Below, one piece after another: positions 21,212 through 40,089 of a stretch of 42,946 nt of DNA (its first letter is position 1; each line of letters opens with the position of its first letter). Made by a program: the position numbers and the translations under genes. The stretch lies in the UHGV virus genome UHGV-1445076. One strand, written 5' to 3'. Source of the stretch: a virus. The notes beneath the pieces were generated by a model, which made no database searches, was not told the origin of the DNA, and saw only the letters and a program-made list of their open reading frames with translations.

Positions 21212-23733
21212 TGGAGAAGAAGAGCTTATACATAATGCGTGACACAAACGGAGTGAAAGAATATTTTCCTTCGTCTACAGAAAAAGCGGTCATAGGTACA
21301 TACACCTATGACGCACAACGCATGGACGGCGCACCGACCTTCACGGCTACATTGAAATTCCCAAGATGTCTTGACAATGAATGGACATTAAACGAGTATA
21401 TAGAATTTGGCGGAGAGAAGTATTATATAAGGCAAAAGCCGTCATCATCCAAAGACAATTCTGAGATAACATACAAACATGAGGTCACATTTGTAAGTGA
21501 AAGGGAGATACTTGAAAACGTGTATTTCCTTGATGTGGTGACAGAAGATACTGAAGCCCAATATAAAGACCGATACAGAAGCAACACATCTAAAGTACAT
21601 TTCTTCGGTGATGTACACGAGTTTATTGCCCGGCTCAACGATTCATTGATTTACAGCGGTCTATATAATAAAGACACACAAGAAGGTTTCCATATTGTCA
21701 TTGACGAAGGCATAACTTCTGAGGGCAAAGATGTCAGTATAGAAGACAAGTTCATTGCAGAGGCTCTACAGGATATATATAATGTATATGGACTCGCCTA
21801 TTATTGGACAGGGAAGACCTGCCACGTAGGATATACAGAGAATGTAATAACAACTCCGATAGAATATGGTAATGACAATGCTCTGTTGTCTATTCAGAAA
21901 ACAAATGCCAATTACAGGATTATCACGAGGATAACCGGTACTGGAGGCACAAAAAATTTGCCATGGTACTATCCAAACATGAGTGCGGAGGGCAACGCGA
22001 GTTTCGACACAGAGAACATTGACAAATCTGAAGTAGCAGATATCTCCTTAAATGAGATACTAAAATACAACAGTTCCCCATATACCGCATATAGACTTAA
22101 AAAGGTGTCAAACACGGATGCCAGCGCAGACATCGGGCAGACTGCTCCTTTTTATAATGCATATAGCCCCACAGTAATAAGCAACAGGGAGGCTACAGAC
22201 ATATTCTATTTTGGAACAGGTATAGGCAACACCTATATCACGATATCTTTCAGACTGAAAATAAATGCACAAGAGGGAGACAAACTTCGGTTTGTTTTCA
22301 ATGAATCCTTTTTGACTTTCAGAAAAATCAGCGGTGACGCAGATTTATCACTTTCATGGCAGAAAGTATCGTCAAATAGCTACGGAGGGGACAGAAACCT
22401 TAAAAATACAATAAGTATTGGAATATGGAGAGACGACTATAATCCGAATGAGGATGATTCTATAAGTGATAAAATAGAAATATTGTCAGGTTGGAAGGAC
22501 TATGAATATACCTTCCATGCCAGCGGATGGTTTCAAGTTGTGATTAAAGGGACTGCTTACGCCATTTTCTCAGGAAGCGGAGCGACCAACAGCCAGGCGA
22601 CTATAGGAATGACGTTAAATGCAAAATCATCCATAACATATCAGAAAAGTGGCGGAGAACTGTATTATTTCTCATATGGAGATGGGAATAACATCGCATA
22701 CAGTAAAAGCGGAATAACGCTGTCTGATGTAAACAATGTTCCGTATGCGCCTTCGCATTTGGATTTCTCAGGCGGTGAATGGAATGTTGTGGAGGACAGC
22801 GGTGACCACACACCAGCCATAATTAATATTACAGGAAGAGAGTGGATAACTCCCTCTCAGAGCCTGATGCCCTCTATATACAGAGAAAGTGGAGGAGCGG
22901 AACGCTACTATAATGCAGTCAATAATACATATGAAGATGAATCAGGAAATAAATATATATTTAATAATGTATACAATGAATTGAACCCTCACGAAGGGAC
23001 GACTTCATTTGAAGATATAGTCCCGACAATAAAAGGGATAAAAAACATTCAAGGTCAGTTGATAGGTGAAATAGCTGACATACGGTTTGATACGGATGAT
23101 AGCGATGTCCTTAAAGACAATAGTGACGAATACCTTCATTCATATTTCTATATAAAACTACATGTATATAACGGAAGTGGAGGCTTCAATATTTTTGAGC
23201 ATGCATTAGAAAGCGAAGAGGCTGCAATAGAGATGACAAGCGGCAACTGCGCCGCATGCCGTTTCGTTATCGGGGTGGACAAGTATGCCGATGGTGACAG
23301 ATACAAATTCTATAACCCTGTCATGACAGACGCACAAGGCAATCTTCGCAAGGTCAACAGTTCTAATGCGGACAAATATGAAGGAGACTATATCCTGCCT
23401 TCACGTGATACAAACAGTTACGTTTCACGCCAGCAGGACACCAGCGAATATGAAGTATGGATAGCCGTAAAAAAAGAAACAGATACCTTTGGTGTCATTA
23501 TGCCGAACGCGGCACAAGGATATCGTCCGTCAATAGGCGATACATTTGTCATAACTGGCATTTCTCTTCCTGAATCCTACATACGGGAAGCGGAAAAAAG
23601 ACTGGATGCGGCTCTTATTGCTTACATGAAAGGGAATAATGATGAGAAATTCACATATTCAATAAAATTTTCCCGTGTATATCTGGCATTAAATGAGGAC
23701 TTCACCTCATTGCTGAATGAAAATAAAATATAA
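21211..23733 (+). CDS. large virion protein of uncertain role (840 aa)
   Basis: 2.5-kb ATG ORF, beta-rich Thr/Ser/Asn/Tyr composition, between the putative portal and the fibre genes. Confidence 0.35.
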   Translation: MEKKSLYIMRDTNGVKEYFPSSTEKAVIGTYTYDAQRMDGAPTFTATLKFPRCLDNEWTLNEYIEFGGEKYYIRQKPSSSKDNSEITYKHEVTFVSEREILENVYFLDVVTEDTEAQYKDRYRSNTSKVHFFGDVHEFIARLNDSLIYSGLYNKDTQEGFHIVIDEGITSEGKDVSIEDKFIAEALQDIYNVYGLAYYWTGKTCHVGYTENVITTPIEYGNDNALLSIQKTNANYRIITRITGTGGTKNLPWYYPNMSAEGNASFDTENIDKSEVADISLNEILKYNSSPYTAYRLKKVSNTDASADIGQTAPFYNAYSPTVISNREATDIFYFGTGIGNTYITISFRLKINAQEGDKLRFVFNESFLTFRKISGDADLSLSWQKVSSNSYGGDRNLKNTISIGIWRDDYNPNEDDSISDKIEILSGWKDYEYTFHASGWFQVVIKGTAYAIFSGSGATNSQATIGMTLNAKSSITYQKSGGELYYFSYGDGNNIAYSKSGITLSDVNNVPYAPSHLDFSGGEWNVVEDSGDHTPAIINITGREWITPSQSLMPSIYRESGGAERYYNAVNNTYEDESGNKYIFNNVYNELNPHEGTTSFEDIVPTIKGIKNIQGQLIGEIADIRFDTDDSDVLKDNSDEYLHSYFYIKLHVYNGSGGFNIFEHALESEEAAIEMTSGNCAACRFVIGVDKYADGDRYKFYNPVMTDAQGNLRKVNSSNADKYEGDYILPSRDTNSYVSRQQDTSEYEVWIAVKKETDTFGVIMPNAAQGYRPSIGDTFVITGISLPESYIREAEKRLDAALIAYMKGNNDEKFTYSIKFSRVYLALNEDFTSLLNENKI

Positions 23734-26700
23734 TCAAGAAGAGCATCTTCTGTATGTCAGCAACTATACTTGTAAAGCCGATGATAGCATACTTTATGAA
23801 ATAAGTGTGGATTTAACAGACACCCTGACCGTGTCTCAATCCTCATTCAGAGCACAGCTCGATTCCATAAAAACAGAGATACTTACATCCCTGACTTATG
23901 GCATGCGTGGTGACATTTTAGCACAATGCGCGAAGTATTTTCTGCGGAAAGACAGTCCGGACACAGCCTTGGATATTATAACATTCCTCAAAGGGCTGCT
24001 TGTGGGAGACGGAGACTACGGCATAGATGCGGACGGTACCGCACGGCTGAAGAAACTTCTTGCCGACGAAGCCACAATGAAAACGCTGACCGTGACAGGA
24101 AGGGCACATTTCTTCGAGCTTGTCATAGATGAGCTGAACAGCGTCGGAGGTCAACTGATACTGTCCGCTGCTAACTGCACGGTACGCTCTGTCGAAAGAA
24201 TAAGCGGAGCATGGCGTCTGTGGTGGCTGGCGGAGGACAGCGACGGCAGAGCCGTGCAGAACATGTGGAAGGTCGGAGACCAGGCTCTGGCAATGACATC
24301 CAATCTTGCCGAGGGGACATCATATGATGCAGGAAACAGACTATGGTGGAGACTTGTCACGGCAACAGGGAGCGGAACACGGAACATTGACGGTGAGGAC
24401 AGAAAGTGCCATTGGATTGAAGTGTCTGAAGCCACGTGCGCGGCTGACAGCCTTGAGCCTGCAGAGGGTGACAGCGTTTGTCTGTGCGGACACCGTGGTG
24501 ACGACACAGCGCGCAGCCATGCGATAATAATAGCCGCCCACTCCACTCCGGATACCGAGCTGGAGAGTCCGTCATTCGCGCAATACAACGGAATCACAAG
24601 TTTTTCTCTAAGCCAGTACCGCACGACATGGTTCGCGGCTAACGGCAATAAGATAAGAGGCGAGCTGGATGTGGACACTTCCGGTCTTGTCAGCTACACG
24701 CACCTTGCATGGGGAAACGGTCCGGACGACTGGACAAAGGACAAATCCCAGAGCACGGCAAAAGACTGGCTCATGCTCGGCATATGCACAGACCGCACGG
24801 AGAGCGACGTGGCTCTCGTCTACAGCGACTATGCATGGTCAAGGATTAAAGGTACTGACGGAAAGACCACATACTTCCATGTGAAATATTCTTCAAACGA
24901 GAACGGAAATCCCATGACAGAGACGCCCAACCTCTACATCGGCACATACGTTGACTTCACTGAGGCAGACAGCAACGACCCCTCGGACTACACGTGGTCA
25001 CGCTTCCAAGGATATGACGGGGAGCAGGGGATACCGGGGAAAAACGGTACGGACGGAAAGACAAGCTACCTTCACATCAAATATTCCGACGACGGGGGAA
25101 AGACGTTCACCGCCAGCAACGGTGAGACACCGGGTGCGTGGCTCGGGCAATGCGTAGACTTCAACTCATATGACCCGACAAGCGTTACCTCATATAAGTG
25201 GACACGGATACGCGGTGAGGACGGAGCGGACGGAAGTGACGGTGAACCCGGCACGGACGGGCAGGACGGATTCTCGTGGGCACTTGACCCTGCCGCCATA
25301 ACATTGGAGGCTGACAGTGACGGTGTGGTGAGCATGCAGGATGCGACATCACGTCTGCGCGCATGGCTCGGCACGCGCGAGATGACTGTCACCATTACCG
25401 CCATAGAGCCAGTGCACTGTCTTGCGTCACGCAACGGGGCGCAGGTTACAATAACCGCAATAGGGACATATACGGCAGACTGGGGAGGTTCGGTGCCGTA
25501 CGGAGCGGGATGGGTGCAGATTACGGCACAGGCAACACTGGGAGGAGAGACCCGCAGTGTGAGCTGCCGCCTGTCCTTCACTGTATCGTCCATGGCACTC
25601 TCATCGCAGATTAAGGCTGAGACGGACAGCATAAGCCTTAAAGTCGGCTATCTTGGGGCAAAGGACGGAAACATGGTGACCACTCCTGACATATTCCTGA
25701 CAGGGAACGGGAACAAGACATACACAATCGGGGACATGTCAAGCCTGCGCGGAAAGACAATAACGGTATCATGCCTTGTCAAGACCGTATCCGCGGTTCC
25801 GGCGGCATCTGGCAACAGACGTATCGGCATGGAGCCCATGGTACGGTATGCCGACGGCAGCACGCAGTATCTCGGAACATGGAGGCAGATAACATCCACG
25901 GACACGTTCGAGGGACGCATAAGCTCCACACACAGGATACAGGATAAGGCTGTGGCGTCGGTAGAACAGTGTAACCTGTATATACAGGGCATATCATCAG
26001 GATACTCGTCCGTATCGCGTCCAAAGATAGAGACAGGTGCGGACGCGACAGACTGGGGACTCAGCGCGGAGGACAGGCTTAAAAGACCGAATCTTCTTCC
26101 AGGAACATCGGACTTCAGCCAATGCACCGTACAGGATACCGTAGAGGCAGGAGCATACACGACACCTTACGGAGAAAAAATAAGCGTGGCACACGGTGTG
26201 AACGAAGCCGGGACATCATACAAGGACGTCATCACATGGCGCAACGTGGTGCCCGAGCCGGGCGTACAGTATACGCTCTCATTCTGGGCGCGCGGCACAG
26301 GCAGCATCGGCTCGTACTTCTATCCGAACTGCACCGACTGGGTCACAAGTCCGGGGACGAAGAACCAGACAGGTGTGACAGACGGATTCGTACAGTTCAC
26401 GCTTGAAAGCGGATGGAACCGCTACCAGGTGACATGGAGCACACGCAACGATGTAAGCGGAGCGAAAAGTCTCATAGCGGCACGGCTCATGCCGGACAGT
26501 TCTGCACAGGGAGAGATCTGGATATGCGGAGTGAAGCTGGAGAAAGGCAGCGAGGCGACAGACTGGCGTTCGGAGACAATCACGCACGACGAGCTGCAGG
26601 CGACAGGAATAGACATTGAGCACAAGCGCATAAAGGTCACTGCCGACAACTTCGAGATACAGAACAACTCAGGCGAGACTGTCACCACTGTCGACGAGGC

Positions 26701-27499
26701 GGGCACCCTTACAGGTGTGATGCTCCGCACTATGGACGAAGGACAGGGGCATGTGGAGATAAAGGGAGGACTGATTGAGGTAAAGAACCCTAACGGTGTG
26801 ACCAACATCAAAATGGGATATAACGGCTCATACATGGTACTGTCATATTATGACAATGACGGTACGTTCCTTTATGACCTCGGACCGTGGGGACTGTCCG
26901 GCAAGGATGTCTCGGAAGAACGGTGGGAGACCAGCAGCAAATACGGACGCCTGCAGCTGACAGGGACCACATTCTCCACCGTAGGCGACATCGTTGGCAA
27001 CAAACAGATAATGAACACCATATTCCAATATGGTCATGTGTACACGAAAACACCTTTGTACATGTATCTTGCAGGGCGCGTAAACGACACATATCTCAGC
27101 GGTGACTACGCCTCCACTCCGGAGATTGCAAGAGCCGCGAACGGCAGATGGTTCATGGAGCAGGGTAATGTGACCACGGCACAGGCTGTCACAGGAATGT
27201 GGGCGCAGGACAATCCGGAATCGTTCATGATAGGCTCGCCTATGGACACACCGCCAATGGACTATACGCGATATGAAGATGACTATGCGGAAAAGGTGGA
27301 TTTCTCCAGACAATGGTGCTCGCGCAATGTGTACAGATTCTCGAACATCGGAATCGTACAACCGGGAAGCGGCACCGTATACTACGGCAGCATGATAACG
27401 ACAACAGCCGTATACATGAATTATGACAGGGTGCAGATGATACAGATTAATCGCATTGACGATGATGACACGGACACGAACGGAAACATATATTTATGA
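23717..27499 (+). CDS. putative tail fibre / receptor-binding protein with collagen-like repeats (1260 aa)
   Basis: Three ~57-aa tandem repeats each ending in Gly-X-Y triplets (GTDGKTTY, GKNGTDGKTSY, GEDGADGSDGEPGTDGQDG); markedly GC-rich compared with neighbours. Confidence 0.5.
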   Translation: MKIKYNQEEHLLYVSNYTCKADDSILYEISVDLTDTLTVSQSSFRAQLDSIKTEILTSLTYGMRGDILAQCAKYFLRKDSPDTALDIITFLKGLLVGDGDYGIDADGTARLKKLLADEATMKTLTVTGRAHFFELVIDELNSVGGQLILSAANCTVRSVERISGAWRLWWLAEDSDGRAVQNMWKVGDQALAMTSNLAEGTSYDAGNRLWWRLVTATGSGTRNIDGEDRKCHWIEVSEATCAADSLEPAEGDSVCLCGHRGDDTARSHAIIIAAHSTPDTELESPSFAQYNGITSFSLSQYRTTWFAANGNKIRGELDVDTSGLVSYTHLAWGNGPDDWTKDKSQSTAKDWLMLGICTDRTESDVALVYSDYAWSRIKGTDGKTTYFHVKYSSNENGNPMTETPNLYIGTYVDFTEADSNDPSDYTWSRFQGYDGEQGIPGKNGTDGKTSYLHIKYSDDGGKTFTASNGETPGAWLGQCVDFNSYDPTSVTSYKWTRIRGEDGADGSDGEPGTDGQDGFSWALDPAAITLEADSDGVVSMQDATSRLRAWLGTREMTVTITAIEPVHCLASRNGAQVTITAIGTYTADWGGSVPYGAGWVQITAQATLGGETRSVSCRLSFTVSSMALSSQIKAETDSISLKVGYLGAKDGNMVTTPDIFLTGNGNKTYTIGDMSSLRGKTITVSCLVKTVSAVPAASGNRRIGMEPMVRYADGSTQYLGTWRQITSTDTFEGRISSTHRIQDKAVASVEQCNLYIQGISSGYSSVSRPKIETGADATDWGLSAEDRLKRPNLLPGTSDFSQCTVQDTVEAGAYTTPYGEKISVAHGVNEAGTSYKDVITWRNVVPEPGVQYTLSFWARGTGSIGSYFYPNCTDWVTSPGTKNQTGVTDGFVQFTLESGWNRYQVTWSTRNDVSGAKSLIAARLMPDSSAQGEIWICGVKLEKGSEATDWRSETITHDELQATGIDIEHKRIKVTADNFEIQNNSGETVTTVDEAGTLTGVMLRTMDEGQGHVEIKGGLIEVKNPNGVTNIKMGYNGSYMVLSYYDNDGTFLYDLGPWGLSGKDVSEERWETSSKYGRLQLTGTTFSTVGDIVGNKQIMNTIFQYGHVYTKTPLYMYLAGRVNDTYLSGDYASTPEIARAANGRWFMEQGNVTTAQAVTGMWAQDNPESFMIGSPMDTPPMDYTRYEDDYAEKVDFSRQWCSRNVYRFSNIGIVQPGSGTVYYGSMITTTAVYMNYDRVQMIQINRIDDDDTDTNGNIYL
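24692..25280 (+). repeat. three ~57-aa tandem protein repeats with collagen-like Gly-X-Y runs
   Basis: Repeats begin SYTHLAWGNG.., TYFHVKYSSNENG.., SYLHIKYSDDGGK.. and each ends ..Y(T/K)W(S/T)R(F/I)(K/Q/R)G + (G-X-Y)n. Confidence 0.55.
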
Positions 27500-27521
27500 T
27501 AAAAAAACAGGAGGACAGTAT

Positions 27522-27629
27522 ATGACATTGACAACATTGAACTTTTCCAAGACCGGAGGCTTGTGGCATGCGGAATGGACACATGGCGGTGAGGGAATAT
27601 TACAGATAGACGGTGAGCCGGAACAGTAA
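27522..27629 (+). CDS. small ORF (35 aa)
   Basis: ATG at 27522 preceded by AGGAGG (27509-27514) at 7-nt spacing; below the size cut-off of the ORF track. Confidence 0.2.
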   Translation: MTLTTLNFSKTGGLWHAEWTHGGEGILQIDGEPEQ

Positions 27630-27645
27630 AGAAAGGAGACAGACC

Positions 27646-28299
27646 ATGAGACGTATAAGAATAGGAAACGACATCATTCTGCGCATAAGGCTTACACGCC
27701 GTGGCGGTGCAGAGAACCTCGAGGGAAAGAAAATAGGTCTTATGCTGCGCAACATTCTCGGCAGTGTGAGCCTTCTTGTAGTACAGTCAGGAGGGGAGCT
27801 GATAGCAGGATGGCAGGGCACACAGCAGCAGTGGACAGGTGCGTATACAGTGACACTCACAGAGGATTGGGGCGAGAACAACCGCAACACCGTGGATGAG
27901 GCATGCGCCTTCGAGCTTGTGTCAATAAGCAGCGACGAGGGTGTGGAGACCGGCACCGTGAACATCGAGCTTGACATGGACATCAGCGTGCCGGGCAACG
28001 GTCTGTCCGCCTATGAGATAGCCGTGCTGCACGGCTTTGAGGGCACAGAAGAAGAATGGCTGGAGAGTTTAAAGCCCGACACGAGTAATTTTGTGACAAC
28101 CGAACAAGTAGCGGAAGACTATCAGCCAAAGGGAGATTATGTTACAGAAGCACCTAAGGATGGGAAAAACTATGTACGGAAAGATGGAAGCTGGACTGAG
28201 TTTGCAGGAAGTGGAAAAGCTAATGCCTTTTTTTCGAATAATATCCTTAAATTTGAGAGCGGAGGAGCACAATTTAACAACAACATATTAATAATTTGA
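27646..28299 (+). CDS. tail fibre protein (217 aa)
   Basis: Track ORF starts at GTG 27613; ATG at 27646 preceded by AGGAG. Contains GLSAYEIAVLHGFEGTEEEWLESLK and QPKGDYVT...DGKNYVRKDGSWTE motifs typical of phage fibre proteins. Confidence 0.5.
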   Translation: MRRIRIGNDIILRIRLTRRGGAENLEGKKIGLMLRNILGSVSLLVVQSGGELIAGWQGTQQQWTGAYTVTLTEDWGENNRNTVDEACAFELVSISSDEGVETGTVNIELDMDISVPGNGLSAYEIAVLHGFEGTEEEWLESLKPDTSNFVTTEQVAEDYQPKGDYVTEAPKDGKNYVRKDGSWTEFAGSGKANAFFSNNILKFESGGAQFNNNILII

Positions 28300-34929: not shown

Positions 34930-35320
34930 CAGATTCCTCCTTTTCTGAGTTTATAGATACGAACAATCTCTCGTAGTCATCACAACTGATTTCAAAGCAG
35001 TTCTGACTTATTACTCCGTCAGAATCCCCGAAAACGTAAAACGGGGTATACGGACTGTATGTCTTCAGGACACCCACATCCTTTTTGTTGTCCTGCCTGT
35101 GTCTGATATAGAACCAGTAATGAGGTCTTTTGTAACCGACACACCATAGCAGCATAAGGACAAACAACAAGAAGAAAAAACAGAAAAACCATTTCGGCAG
35201 GAAAACGTCAATCAGAAAGAATGTAACCCATGCCGTTACCATTACGGCGAAAGCCTCAAAAGATGTCTTGTAATCAAAATTTTTCATTTTCATAATATGT
35301 TTAATATTTCTTATTCCCAT
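34910..35320 (-). CDS. small membrane protein
   Basis: Hydrophobic segments AVMVTAWVTFFLIDVF and WFFCFFFLLFVLMLLWCV; alternative ATGs at 35293 and 35287 avoid overlap with the upstream gene. Confidence 0.3.
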   Translation of the reverse strand: MGIRNIKHIMKMKNFDYKTSFEAFAVMVTAWVTFFLIDVFLPKWFFCFFFLLFVLMLLWCVGYKRPHYWFYIRHRQDNKKDVGVLKTYSPYTPFYVFGDSDGVISQNCFEISCDDYERLFVSINSEKEESDDTDAK

Positions 35321-35855
35321 GCTTAAATGGGCGGAGTCTGTTATAGCGCATCTTCTGCTCGACGTAGAAGTCGATGTCGATATCGTTTTGGTGGCAGAAT
35401 AAGATAATGAGGGCTACAGTGAGATTGATTTTTTCGCAAAGGGCTTCCTTATATAAACAAAGTCCCTCACAAAGATGGTACATGACGACGGGGAATGGCT
35501 CATTAATGAATTTTGCGTCTGAAGCAAGAAACTCGTCAACGTAATGCAGGGATATTCCGCGCAGTGCAGCCAAGTCCAAACAGCGTATGATGATGTCGCT
35601 AAGTTCATCCTCAACCGAGTTTTTGACGTGTGTCTCAAATTCATACTTAAATACAACGTCGTCATCGGCGTATGTTCCAAGTAATGCTTTGAAAAGGTCA
35701 ATGTCCGTGTGCCTGTCCTTGCGGTCTGCCTGTACAGCTTCAGATATCTCAGTAATGATAAGCATCAAATAAGTTTCGTCAGGCAGTTCTTCATCGTGCC
35801 ATCCGTGCGTCTTTGCGGTCTCAAAAACTGCTTTTGATAATTTAGTCAAATCCAT
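35301..35855 (-). CDS. MazG-like nucleotide pyrophosphohydrolase (all-alpha NTP-PPase) candidate
   Basis: HGWHDEELPDETYLMLIITEISEAVQA and VEDELSDIIIRCLDLAALRGISL fit the paired acidic-helix pattern of MazG/dimeric dUTPase-like enzymes. Confidence 0.45.
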   Translation of the reverse strand: MDLTKLSKAVFETAKTHGWHDEELPDETYLMLIITEISEAVQADRKDRHTDIDLFKALLGTYADDDVVFKYEFETHVKNSVEDELSDIIIRCLDLAALRGISLHYVDEFLASDAKFINEPFPVVMYHLCEGLCLYKEALCEKINLTVALIILFCHQNDIDIDFYVEQKMRYNRLRPFKHGNKKY

Positions 35856-37624: not shown

Positions 37625-37789
37625 TTATCTTGTGATTTTAGAGGAAATTTTCCTTGTATTTCCTTTGTTTTCCTTTGCCAAACACTCATTGCCACATCTT
37701 CTGCCCACGTCGTACTTATCGCACCATCCGTCTCCGTAGAAGCCTTCGTTAATGAAGTGGATACATGAGCCGCAGTGTCTTGCTTTCAT
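37625..37789 (-). CDS. small Cys-rich ORF (54 aa), coupled to the PP-loop gene
   Basis: ATG at 37789-37787 overlaps the stop of the upstream gene (ATGA); translation MKARHCGSCIHF...GWCDKYDVGRRCGNECL, TAA at 37627-37625. Below the ORF-track size cut-off. Confidence 0.25.
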   Translation of the reverse strand: MKARHCGSCIHFINEGFYGDGWCDKYDVGRRCGNECLAKENKGNTRKISSKITR

Positions 37790-38703
37790 TTTTCGTCGTC
37801 TTTAAATTCAAATTTCTGTTGCAGGAACTCGTCAGCGTAGAACTGCTTGTAGCTCTTGTCGCTTATCCACCACCTAAAGCCTGTTTCAGCGTCGTTGAAA
37901 TTGTGGTCGATATATCCGTTGTCTATCAGCCATTGGATTGTCTTTATCCAATTGCGTTTGACGTGCGGCCAGCGTTTAGCATCTTCCTTCTTTATCCGTG
38001 CGTTCGACATAGGGCAACAGATGCAGCCAATGCGTGTATAACCCTCGTCGTAGAGTTCGCAGTGTGGTATGCCGTTCATGTTAAGGAACTCCCACACGTC
38101 GCGCTCCGTCCAATAGATTATGGGCGATACAAGGATTTTGTCCTTACCGCCGACACACGCAACCATGCTCTCCTCATGTTCGCTCCATTGGTCAAAGGTT
38201 TCCTCATTGCGCTTGCCCTTTATCTCTGTGGATATTTCCTCACGTTTTGCACGCCGTGCGCTTTCTTCTTTTCTCACACCGATAAGTGTCACCTTGCCAA
38301 CGCCTGACGTTTCCTTGAACTCGGCACAACACCAACGCAAAGTCCTTGTCGGCAAGATGTGCTTTTTCTTCGCCATTTCGTAAATGCTCATCCGTGGTTT
38401 GATTAGCTCCACATCGGGGTATTGCGTCTTGACGAAGCGGATGACTTCGGGCGGGTCTATGCTCGTAAGGTTCATGTGAGCCTTGAAGCGGACACCGGCC
38501 AGCTTTGCGACATGGTAGAGGCATTGGCTGTCCTTGCCGCCACTGAACGCAAGGTAAAAGCCGTTTTCGGGGTCGAGGCGCAACGCCATTTTCTCCGACT
38601 TCCGCAAAAGTTCGACGGAGTGTTCCAGCTTCCTTGCAAGCGGACGGCTTACCTTTGACATTACGGTGTCGTGGTCAAGCAGTATTATTTCACACGCTTT
38701 CAT
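37786..38703 (-). CDS. PP-loop ATP pyrophosphatase, PAPS-reductase-like (CysH/DndC-like) protein
   Basis: YLAFSGGKDSQCL carries the SGGxDS PP-loop motif; C-terminal Cys cluster RIGCICCPMS; 305 aa. Confidence 0.65.
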   Translation of the reverse strand: MKACEIILLDHDTVMSKVSRPLARKLEHSVELLRKSEKMALRLDPENGFYLAFSGGKDSQCLYHVAKLAGVRFKAHMNLTSIDPPEVIRFVKTQYPDVELIKPRMSIYEMAKKKHILPTRTLRWCCAEFKETSGVGKVTLIGVRKEESARRAKREEISTEIKGKRNEETFDQWSEHEESMVACVGGKDKILVSPIIYWTERDVWEFLNMNGIPHCELYDEGYTRIGCICCPMSNARIKKEDAKRWPHVKRNWIKTIQWLIDNGYIDHNFNDAETGFRWWISDKSYKQFYADEFLQQKFEFKDDEK

Positions 38704-38834: not shown

Positions 38835-38981
38835 CTAATCGTCTACAATGGCTTTTGCTAAACCGAAGAGAAGGATATATATTCCTAACATGAGCAGTAC
38901 CCATGGGAAACTTGTCAACATCCATATAGAGGCTGCCACGCAAAGTGCACCGGCATGGATGATTAGTTCAGTTCTGTTCAT
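38835..38981 (-). CDS. small two-helix membrane ORF (48 aa), coupled to the radical SAM gene
   Basis: Hand translation MNRTELIIHAGALCVAASIWMLTSFPWVLLMLGIYILLFGLAKAIVDD; ATG overlaps the radical SAM stop (ATGA). Confidence 0.25.
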   Translation of the reverse strand: MNRTELIIHAGALCVAASIWMLTSFPWVLLMLGIYILLFGLAKAIVDD

Positions 38982-39883
38982 TGCTTCATATTTTTAAGTT
39001 TGTAACTATTCTCATTAAGCCACTTTTGGAAATACCATAACTGACCGCATCCGCCACCTATATCGTCTTGCCCTGCCGGGTTAAATACTCTCGTATTAAA
39101 ACCTACGTCATTCATCTTTGAATTAAAGTCACGGATTAAGTCAAGTTGTCGCTGTATTGATGAATGTACACTTTCATCCTTTTCGCAAATAACAGACAAA
39201 GTGACCTCCCATATATCAGGGTTAAATAATTCAGAGAGCCTCATAGCATCTTCCATATCATTATTCCCGACATGTACGCAATAATTAAAGAAAGGCTTTC
39301 TTCCGACATAAGAAGCCCAAAACTCACCCGTAGAAGCTATTTGCCGAAGTGTTGACGTATTCGTTGCTATAAGTTTCTTCCTTTTTTCATCTGTACTTTC
39401 ATGTACTGAAAATTGAAGACCTACTTTATCTATTTCTTTCGATAGTGCAATAAAATCAGACATGTATAAATACATCATGTGAGGGGCAGAAGTGCTTACA
39501 AGAAGTTGTGCGTTTGGATATTTCACATGTAGACTTTCTATTGCAGGCTGCAATGCCGAGTAGTTGTAAAAAGGCTCTCCCATGCTCATAAACATAATTT
39601 GGAACTTTTTAATGTCATCAGTGCGGCAATCAATAGTAGATAATGCCCCATCAATCTGTTGTATTATTTCGTCAGTAGAAAGATTTCTGACAAAAAATTT
39701 GCCTGTTCCGCAGAAAGAACATCCAACTGGACAACCGCTTTGAACCGAACAACATATAACTGTCCTTTTTTTGTATTCTCCATATCTATAAAGAACAGTT
39801 TCAGCAATAGCATTTGGCTTGTCCCACTCAAACACGAATTTCTTTACATTCGTATCACTTGATTCAAATACTTTTGTTTTCAT
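38978..39883 (-). CDS. radical SAM enzyme, RlmN/Cfr-like minimal form (301 aa)
   Basis: CCSVQSGCPVGCSFCGTG carries Cys51-X3-Cys55-X2-Cys58 in the S-Q-x-G-C-xxx-C-x-F-C-x-T pattern of RlmN/Cfr; MSMGEP motif; C-terminal GGGCGQL resembles the second mechanistic cysteine motif of RlmN. Confidence 0.65.
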   Translation of the reverse strand: MKTKVFESSDTNVKKFVFEWDKPNAIAETVLYRYGEYKKRTVICCSVQSGCPVGCSFCGTGKFFVRNLSTDEIIQQIDGALSTIDCRTDDIKKFQIMFMSMGEPFYNYSALQPAIESLHVKYPNAQLLVSTSAPHMMYLYMSDFIALSKEIDKVGLQFSVHESTDEKRKKLIATNTSTLRQIASTGEFWASYVGRKPFFNYCVHVGNNDMEDAMRLSELFNPDIWEVTLSVICEKDESVHSSIQRQLDLIRDFNSKMNDVGFNTRVFNPAGQDDIGGGCGQLWYFQKWLNENSYKLKNMKQ

Positions 39884-40089
39884 TTGCCGTATGTTTTTGT
39901 TTTCTTGGGTTTGTAACTATCGGTTTCTTCGTCCCACTCCACGCAGTCGGGGCAGTAGAGTTTGCCGTCGATTTCTTCCCAATCGCACATCTTCGCCATA
40001 TACCTTGCCATACCTTCACTAAATTCATAGCCATGCTTACTTCCGCACCCGTCGCACACGGCTTGGTACATCGTCACTTTCTGTTTCAT
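39880..40089 (-). CDS. small zinc-ribbon protein (69 aa)
   Basis: CDGCGS...CPDC paired CxxC motifs; its stop overlaps the radical SAM start by 4 nt. Confidence 0.4.
   Translation of the reverse strand: MKQKVTMYQAVCDGCGSKHGYEFSEGMARYMAKMCDWEEIDGKLYCPDCVEWDEETDSYKPKKTKTYGK

Follow-up and report, generated by a model that had tools for sequence, protein, structure and literature searches.

A widespread phage clade of predicted RlmN/Cfr-type radical SAM methyl synthases without the N-terminal RNA-binding domain

The virus genome UHGV-1445076, analysed here as a single stretch of 42,946 nucleotides (the window), carries a gene for a 301-residue protein that resembles the radical S-adenosylmethionine (SAM) enzymes RlmN and Cfr. 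RlmN is a dual-specificity methyl synthase that produces m2A2503 in 23S rRNA and m2A37 in tRNA, and Cfr produces m8A2503 in 23S rRNA, conferring resistance to phenicols, lincosamides, oxazolidinones, pleuromutilins and streptogramin A (PhLOPSA). The phage gene occupies positions 38978..39883 on the minus strand. A sequence-only reading of the window had given this open reading frame (ORF) its correct coordinates and length; the plus strand over the same interval is riddled with stop codons. An ATGA overlap with the flanking ORF on each side indicates that the gene is embedded in a leftward operon. Its identification as an RlmN/Cfr-like radical SAM methyl synthase without the N-terminal domain draws on the ORF itself, the TIGR00048 profile, an AlphaFold2 model and a Foldseek search.

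The catalytic apparatus is complete. Residues 46-61, SVQSGCPVGCSFCGTG, contain the C51-X3-C55-X2-C58 ligands of the radical SAM [4Fe-4S] cluster (39710..39733, like all features of the gene on the minus strand), and these three cysteines are invariant in RlmN and Cfr and in 54 of the 54 short forms aligned. The MSMGEP segment (residues 99-104; 39572..39589) aligns with the MG(M/I)GEP segment of RlmN and Cfr and, from what is generally known of radical SAM enzymes, presumably serves in SAM binding; its Pro104 is kept in at least 90% of sequences, at a position where Cfr has Ala. Near the C-terminus, the GGGCGQL segment (residues 276-282; 39038..39058) places Cys279 at the position of the methyl-carrying cysteine, C355 in RlmN and C338 in Cfr. 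All three motifs had been named in the sequence-only reading and lie at the residues it gave, and the C-terminal cysteine and the MGEP segment, on whose alignment that reading had let the family assignment depend, do align with the catalytic positions of RlmN and Cfr. The first mechanistic cysteine, Cys44 (39752..39754), was overlooked there. It sits seven residues before Cys51 and is equated by HMMER alignments to 3rf9 and 9p0p, and by MAFFT, with C118 of RlmN and C105 of Cfr, the residue that resolves the enzyme-substrate cross-link; a Cys is found at this position in 47 of the 54 short forms. In a MAFFT alignment of the phage protein with the RlmN of E. coli, Listeria and Paenibacillus, Cfr and Cfr(D), the invariant positions comprise E28, C44, C51/C55/C58, G102-E103, N107, S130, S159, H161, R168, Y201, N207 and the C279-G-Q-L segment.

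Family placement by profile and by structure gives a consistent picture. The RlmN equivalog model TIGR00048 matches with an E-value of 5.9e-28 over model positions 73-342 of 355, at 97.8 bits, a score far below the curated cut-off of 290 at which a protein counts as an RlmN equivalog, and Pfam returns the generic Radical_SAM domain alone, slightly below threshold. Sequence matches in the PDB are led by RlmN 6fz6 (E 2e-18), Cfr 9p0p (E 1e-11) and E. coli RlmN 3rf9 (E 2e-10), and PHROG 24834, a family of unknown function, matches residues 39-276 over profile positions 62-313 of 336 (E 5.4e-16). An AlphaFold2 model built from 54 sequences has a predicted local distance difference test score (pLDDT) of 94.2 and a predicted template modelling score (pTM) of 0.92. 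Searched with Foldseek against the PDB, its best eight matches are all RlmN (E 7e-19 to 1e-14, template modelling (TM) score ~0.73), foremost 6fz6, 3rfa and 5hr7, with RimO following at 3e-6 as the next radical SAM enzyme. The predicted fold is of the RlmN type, in which a partial TIM barrel is joined by the β′1-3 extension and by a C-terminal tail that bears the cysteine. Sequence and fold (E 7e-19, 27% identity) agree on the nearest solved structure, 6FZ6, a radical SAM methyltransferase from Sphaerobacter thermophilus deposited as a probable RlmN. That protein is cellular, and the match starts from residue 109 of its 366 deposited residues (341 modelled), so its N-terminal region is retained. 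E. coli RlmN (b2517; 3RFA, 5HR7) shares with the phage protein the fold (Foldseek E 5e-17, TM 0.75), the cluster motif, both mechanistic cysteines, the MGEP segment, the β′ extension and R114 (R40 in the phage protein), although the two are only 22-24% identical. Judged by sequence and predicted fold, the phage protein is a class-A radical SAM methyl synthase of the RlmN/Cfr family, as had been proposed from the letters alone.

Both RlmN and Cfr are believed to depend on an N-terminal domain for reading the L-shape of the RNAs they modify, and it is this HhH2 RNA-binding domain that is not present in the 301-residue protein. E. coli RlmN is 384 residues long with its first cluster cysteine at position 125, so that the phage protein is 83 residues shorter and its motif is shifted by 74, close to the earlier estimates of about 80 residues and of a cysteine motif near residue 50 instead of ~120. 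The range of the TIGR00048 match, the alignment to E. coli RlmN, which begins at about residue 80, and the model, which starts at the β′ extension, together indicate that only the HhH2 domain (RlmN residues 1 to ~80) is missing, in agreement with the absence of the RNA-recognition domain suggested beforehand. Residues 1-33 (39785..39883) are predicted to form three β-strands, assigned by DSSP to residues 2-7, 13-21 and 24-33, and correspond by alignment to the β′1-3 extension that joins the HhH2 domain to the radical SAM barrel in Cfr and RlmN (PMC13001441).

The complete conservation of the catalytic set, together with the fold, gives good support to the view that the phage enzyme very probably performs the RlmN/Cfr reaction. 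A first SAM would methylate Cys279, and a second would be cleaved at the [4Fe-4S] cluster held by C51, C55 and C58 to yield a 5′-deoxyadenosyl radical, which would take a hydrogen from methyl-Cys279. The resulting methylene radical would add to an amidine carbon of adenine, either C2 or C8, and Cys44 would resolve the covalent enzyme-substrate adduct.

This protein is one of a very large number. A word-indexed database search returned 5605 relatives, the best 120 clusters of which are all 292-319 residues long and at least 69% identical, and an exhaustive search of 50%-identity representatives returned 5616 at E <= 1e-3, 1387 at E <= 1e-10 and 74 at E <= 1e-30. Homologs from cultured phages at 47-51% identity include gp133 of Salmonella phage Arash and proteins of Stenotrophomonas phages ANB28 and BUCTxx99, Xanthomonas phage JGB6, Aeromonas phage Ahp1 and several Vibrio phages. 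The BFVD holds A0A6J5RTK8 (uncultured Caudovirales, COG0820) and the 302-residue B3FJU2 from Pseudomonas phage 201phi2-1, and the genome collection searched holds homologs in Muribaculaceae, Bacteroidales, Runella and Christensenella assemblies, the closest found being in metagenome-assembled genomes of Muribaculaceae and Bacteroidales. The phage homologs (Arash gp133, the 'RlmN' of ANB28, P0168 of Vibrio phage 496E54-1, PHROG 24834 and the BFVD entries) share the short architecture, and direct checks confirmed the clade signature in the Arash and Vibrio proteins as well as in 58 members dereplicated at 90%. They differ in belonging to phages of other hosts with lytic or jumbo genomes of 106-462 kb, as opposed to a window of ~43 kb with temperate features, and several lie in tRNA arrays or NAD-salvage operons, unlike the gene in the window. 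A literature search found no paper on phage-encoded short RlmN/Cfr proteins. In the records of BUCTxx99 (OR529408.1) and JGB6 (OQ436456.1) the homolog is labelled a prohibitin family or SPFH Band 7 protein, which looks like a mis-annotation; a genuine Band_7 gene lies 1.7 kb upstream of the homolog at locus L004.

Among the 58 dereplicated clade members, 68 of the 301 positions are at least 95% identical, every catalytic residue included. Nonsynonymous divergence (dN) from relatives is 0.11-0.26, synonymous divergence (dS) is saturated, and dN/dS is ~0.12 where it can be computed; the phage clade is under strong purifying selection. Because the protein lacks the N-terminal part of cellular RlmN and scores below every curated family cut-off, its gene might be taken for the inactive or decaying relic of an rlmN captured from a host. 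Such a remnant would not be expected to have thousands of relatives of the same length, a truncation exactly at a domain boundary, a confident predicted fold and the constraint just described, and this explanation, extremely improbable in our estimate, appears effectively refuted by the conservation data.

A neighbour-joining distance tree with a midpoint root, which leaves the direction of evolution unsettled, groups canonical RlmN and Cfr, with their 60-85 extra N-terminal residues, in one clade, distributes the short forms over many deep clades and recovers the query clade as well defined. Nor is the lack of the N-terminal domain an oddity, given the number of deep clades sharing it, one of them cellular and placed in a rimM-trmD operon. 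The cellular protein in question, P0241 (281 residues; L162:6001-6846, on a 202-kb genomic contig of GCA_964396655.1), is encoded in an operon that runs AspRS, SerRS, ..., P0241, SpoU methylase, RimM, TrmD, L19 and RsgA, and with this housekeeping translation context some cellular lineages appear to use the short form as their RlmN. P0241 resembles the phage proteins in lacking HhH2 and in its catalytic cysteines, but belongs to a separate clade at ~28% identity and is without the phage signature Q95, M97, G155, Q157, C233, P269 and GGG. The N-terminal extensions of the longer relatives P0123, P0125 and P0126 were considered as cryptic RlmN N-terminal domains and rejected, being heterogeneous and without a Pfam hit.

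In the cryo-EM complex of Cfr with rRNA (PMC13001441), the HhH2 domain anchors the enzyme at the H90/H91/H92 junction by backbone contacts that are not sequence-specific, and the U-turn (2502-2505) and the target adenosine are held by the barrel together with the β′ extension and C-terminal tail. When this complex is overlaid with that of RlmN and tRNA, H91 and H92 coincide with the acceptor stem and D-arm. The Cfr contact list was mapped on 22 clade members, 12 canonical RlmN sequences and Cfr. Several contacts to the U-turn are kept, namely Y34 (Cfr Y97), R195-K196 (Cfr R249-K250) and F198, which replaces the Cfr Y252 that stacks on U2504 by another aromatic residue, and so is R40, which matches RlmN R114 at the position from which Cfr W101 inserts into the U-turn. 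Other positions carry different residues that are conserved in the clade, where E. coli R207, N172 and V174 become Q126, Q95 and M97 and the position of Cfr Q329 is P269. Near-invariant residues peculiar to the clade are G155, Q157, R265, C202, C233 and the PAGQDDIGGGCGQLW tail, and the last of these, along with the motifs SV(I/V)C and NYC, sets the phage-borne proteins apart from E. coli RlmN. The cysteine of NYC, Cys202 (39278..39280), is at least 95% conserved in the 58 phage-clade sequences and is V or I in aligned RlmN and Cfr; that of SV(I/V)C, Cys233 (39185..39187), is conserved to the same degree in a motif that stands in place of the LIP(W/Y)NP of RlmN and Cfr, whose aligned residue is N. 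Located at or just past the C-terminal ends of the predicted strands 198-202 and 226-230, both cysteines may line the active site.

Of the basic positions, ten are still conserved in the clade, four of them new (R33, K93, K235 and R265), so that a phosphate-rich substrate is still likely. Net charge and isoelectric point were of no use as discriminators, since the phage clade (-13 to +3) and canonical cores (-6 to +6) overlap and their counts of conserved basic residues are similar. The altered substrate recognition that had been suggested for this protein is plausible, given that the domain reading the L-shape is gone and many contact positions carry clade-specific residues.

The same comparison bears on the concern, raised in the sequence-only reading, that the gene could encode a mobile Cfr-type enzyme which, by methylating C8 of A2503 in 23S rRNA, would make bacteria multidrug-resistant (PhLOPSA). 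Cfr (S. aureus pSA737; 9P0P; cryo-EM complex PMC13001441) belongs to the same family, has the same catalytic residues, with C105 and C338 equivalent to C44 and C279, and agrees with the phage protein at Y97 (Y34), R249/K250 (R195/K196) and in the aromatic residue at Y252 (F198). The phage protein is nonetheless only 25-27% identical to Cfr, has no N-terminal anchor to the H90/H91/H92 junction and scores 76.6, 69.8 and 70.9 bits (E ~1e-20) with the Cfr models NF000424, TIGR04432 and NF011024, whose cut-offs are 530, 550 and 468. Seven residues, Y97, W101, S103, S151, S153, Q329 and F330, are conserved in Cfr and diversified in RlmN, and single substitutions at W101, S103, S151, Q329 and F330 reduce or abolish resistance (PMC12887959). 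Only Y97 has its match in the phage protein (Y34); the remaining six are replaced by R40, V42, Q95, M97, P269 and A270. A search of 72,556 plasmids returned RlmN or Cfr themselves as its only matches, all below 31% identity, from which it follows that the clade is not on known plasmids. Cfr and RlmN modify naked 23S rRNA during assembly, an activity that would presumably offer an early lytic gene little. By every criterion applied to its sequence the phage gene is not a Cfr-type resistance gene, and Cfr-type methylation must be regarded as very unlikely. For resistance surveillance this is reassuring: nothing tested supports a Cfr-type call, and similarity by itself is no sufficient ground for labelling such phage genes cfr or rlmN.

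The substrate that we tentatively favour, at somewhat less than even chances, is an adenosine in an exposed RNA loop that would be recognised by the catalytic core alone. The characterised relatives all act on RNA, the phage clade keeps the U-turn contacts and ten conserved basic positions, a form without the N-terminal domain is found in a cellular translation operon, and the gene often neighbours tRNA arrays and CCA-adding enzymes. This last point comes from ~150 loci of relatives, examined up to 10 kb per side and dereplicated to 59 groups, of which 14 have a tRNA gene within 10 kb of the homolog, 7 of them within 1 kb, and 4 have a CCA-adding enzyme nearby. The homolog stands inside the tRNA array itself in ANB28, and likewise in two contigs whose tRNA arrays are large. 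In four groups the only or nearest tRNA is tRNA-Gln, which is a good substrate of RlmN. A tRNA with a CTA anticodon of the amber-suppressor type, reported by ARAGORN as tRNA-Pyl, was observed on the large phage contig of L069 at ~7.9 kb from the homolog and may indicate stop-codon reassignment there.

According to this RNA-loop proposal, the HhH2 domain, which gauges the L-shape of 23S rRNA or tRNA, would have been lost and the residues gripping the U-turn around the target base kept. The target would more likely be the anticodon-type loop of a tRNA made during infection than A2503 of the host 23S rRNA, as enzymes that act on naked rRNA during assembly would presumably be of less use to the phage than one acting on such a tRNA. 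The enzyme would act on its own, with no partner protein dedicated to it, as an accessory function that the phage expresses early. A fixed partner gene was sought across the 59 groups and none was found, the commonest neighbour family occurring in 10; the idea of a conserved partner that replaces the lost domain was rejected on this count.

Several observations weigh against a loop of RNA as the substrate. The RNA-contact residues R206, N307 and R344 (E. coli numbering), invariant in canonical RlmN and Cfr, are A125, T228 and F267 in the phage protein, and these residues recur in 17-21 of the 22 clade members. The strongest signal from genomic context is NAD salvage rather than tRNA, with six groups in which the homolog is adjacent to or embedded among such genes, always co-oriented, and fusions to Nudix domains arose in two distant clades. 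In the phage tRNAs adjacent to the homologs A37 is not consistent: both tRNA-Gln genes of L027 have G37, and the scanned Asp and Glu tRNAs of L114 and L158 have T37, which is unusual and possibly either an indexing artefact or real. Small temperate phages carry the gene among DNA-metabolism genes, and the present window has no tRNA gene. The loss of the R206/N307/R344 triad was at one point taken as proof of a non-RNA substrate, an argument that has been withdrawn because the cellular short form P0241, with its translation context, is likewise without the triad, which thus co-varies with the N-terminal domain and not with RNA versus non-RNA substrates.

The context of NAD genes (for nicotinamide adenine dinucleotide) raises the alternative that the enzyme acts on an adenine nucleotide or dinucleotide, such as NAD+, ADP-ribose, ATP or a derived defence signal, alongside phage genes for NAD+ reconstitution or salvage in counter-defence. 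Genes of NAD pathways (NAMPT/Namat-like, Prs/Adps-like, PncA-like isochorismatase, NadE and NMNAT) occur within 10 kb of the homolog in 14 of the 59 groups, against a base rate of ~1.1% of phages for NARP2 and 5.4% for NARP1 plus NARP2. The arrangements in the six closest cases, where X is the RlmN/Cfr-like homolog, are PncA-x-Prs-X-NAMPT-x-x-NadE (L126), Prs-NAMPT-X in a Vibrio phage (L003), NAMPT-X (L076), NAMPT-x-X...Prs (L069), X-PncA (L004) and X fused to NUDIX, followed by NAMPT and NMNAT (L060); the gene orders thus differ, and the X proteins are only 42-68% identical to each other. The fusion of L060 (P0130; L060:2043-3449) is a C-terminal NUDIX domain on a member of the query clade within a phage NAMPT-NMNAT operon. 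A second C-terminal NUDIX fusion, P0219 (L166:8001-9395), belongs to a distant clade with 26% core identity and lies in a cellular context (POR, NifU/IscS, DinB), and the two arose independently. In P0219 the middle cluster cysteine is apparently Tyr (GCAMGYSFC). A third protein, the 759-residue P0204 (L061:724-3003), combines a short RlmN-like core with C-terminal HD and HD_assoc domains, a phosphohydrolase module that we take to resemble dNTP triphosphohydrolase, and is probably cellular, as it adjoins genes for histidinol dehydrogenase and aconitase. The loss of the helix-binding arginines of canonical RlmN and Cfr would also be in keeping with a nucleotide substrate. The retained U-turn contacts speak for RNA instead, most loci are without NAD genes, the window included, in which none for NAMPT/Namat, Prs/Adps or NMNAT was found, and the papers on NARP make no mention of a radical SAM gene. 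We know of no class-A radical SAM methylase that acts on a small molecule, and RlmN and Cfr are slow enzymes that consume two SAM per turnover, ill-suited to a millimolar pool. As accessory and anti-defence genes cluster in islands, the adjacency may moreover be indirect. On balance, a nucleotide substrate is unlikely.

Quite unlikely, and more so than a nucleotide, is a third possibility, that the enzyme methylates adenine carbons of DNA in the phage genome or in replication intermediates as a new protective modification. It would account for the place of the gene in the early replication and recombination block of small temperate phages, where its neighbours are SSB, RecT, VRR-NUC, ParB_N-DUF4417, ParB_N-N6/N4 methylase, YopX and PAPS-reductase/BrxP-like proteins, and for DNA polymerase A within 10 kb in ~9 of the 59 groups. 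It could also appeal to Ser153 of Cfr, reported to contact the 2′-OH of A2503, which is Met in the clade; RlmN itself has Val there, so the change is uninformative. The protein has no DNA-recognition module, the synteny in temperate phages looks inherited, and the literature searches turned up no mention of phage DNA containing 2- or 8-methyladenine. The cost of two SAM per methyl group also speaks against bulk modification.

The window itself is the genome of a tailed phage, with a large terminase, an SPP1-type portal, a major head protein and a 1915-residue tape measure, as well as an Amidase_3 endolysin and an HTH plus ImmA/IrrE-type regulator. Upstream of the RlmN/Cfr-like gene, and ATGA-coupled to its start, is an ORF at 39880..40089 (minus strand) for a 69-residue zinc-ribbon protein of the CxxC...CxxC type with a basic tail and a weak match to DUF7569 and phrog_17873. 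As a conserved partner it was rejected, for it is kept upstream only in the closest relatives, and two CxxC motifs are found in only 3 of 52 upstream ORFs at related loci. In the same operon direction, 275 nucleotides downstream, lies a gene for a 305-residue PAPS-reductase-like protein (37786..38703, minus strand; PF01507, E 3.3e-22; phrog_424) with an SGGKDS PP-loop and a resemblance to the PAPS-reductase part of BREX BrxP (E 2.3e-16). It too was dismissed as a functional partner, occurring near homologs in only 3 of the 59 groups, this window included. Searches across the window for tRNA genes and Rfam matches gave none, its nucleotide-level comparison with known phages gave no match, and a search of the RlmN/Cfr-like protein against the PADLOC defence models gave no family at E <= 0.001. 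A 184-residue protein at 35301-35855 (minus strand) has a weak MazG-like match below threshold (E 8e-4), and its family recurs a few kb from the homolog in ~5 groups of Bacteroidales-type temperate phages (including L005-L008 and L115). The G+C content rises from ~0.44 elsewhere to 0.53-0.56 at 24001-28000 (plus strand), inside a 1260-residue ORF at 23717-27499 for a large tail or host-range protein. A diversity-generating retroelement was considered for this region, and merely short protein-level direct repeats, with no sign of such an element, were seen.

The phage clade is a widespread, uncharacterised variant of RlmN and Cfr that is linked in a suggestive way with operons for NAD salvage, with tRNA arrays and with Nudix domains. 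A bolder account of these links, which we consider rather improbable, would make it a counter-defence enzyme coupled to phage NAD+ reconstitution, one that C-methylates the adenine of NAD+, ADP-ribose or a TIR/SIR2-derived signal, or that immunises tRNAs against abortive-infection nucleases. If true, it would be the first class-A radical SAM methyl synthase outside housekeeping rRNA and tRNA modification and antibiotic resistance, and the embedding in NAD operons and the two independent Nudix fusions would reflect a shared pathway. No class-A radical SAM methylases other than RlmN and Cfr are known to have been characterised, and here a very large and strongly conserved phage clade dispenses with the N-terminal domain and has its substrate site rebuilt. 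The identity of its target would show how far class-A chemistry reaches, be it to other RNAs, to DNA or to nucleotides, and the recurring association with NAD+ salvage, tRNA arrays and Nudix domains points to a possible new accessory or counter-defence function of phages.

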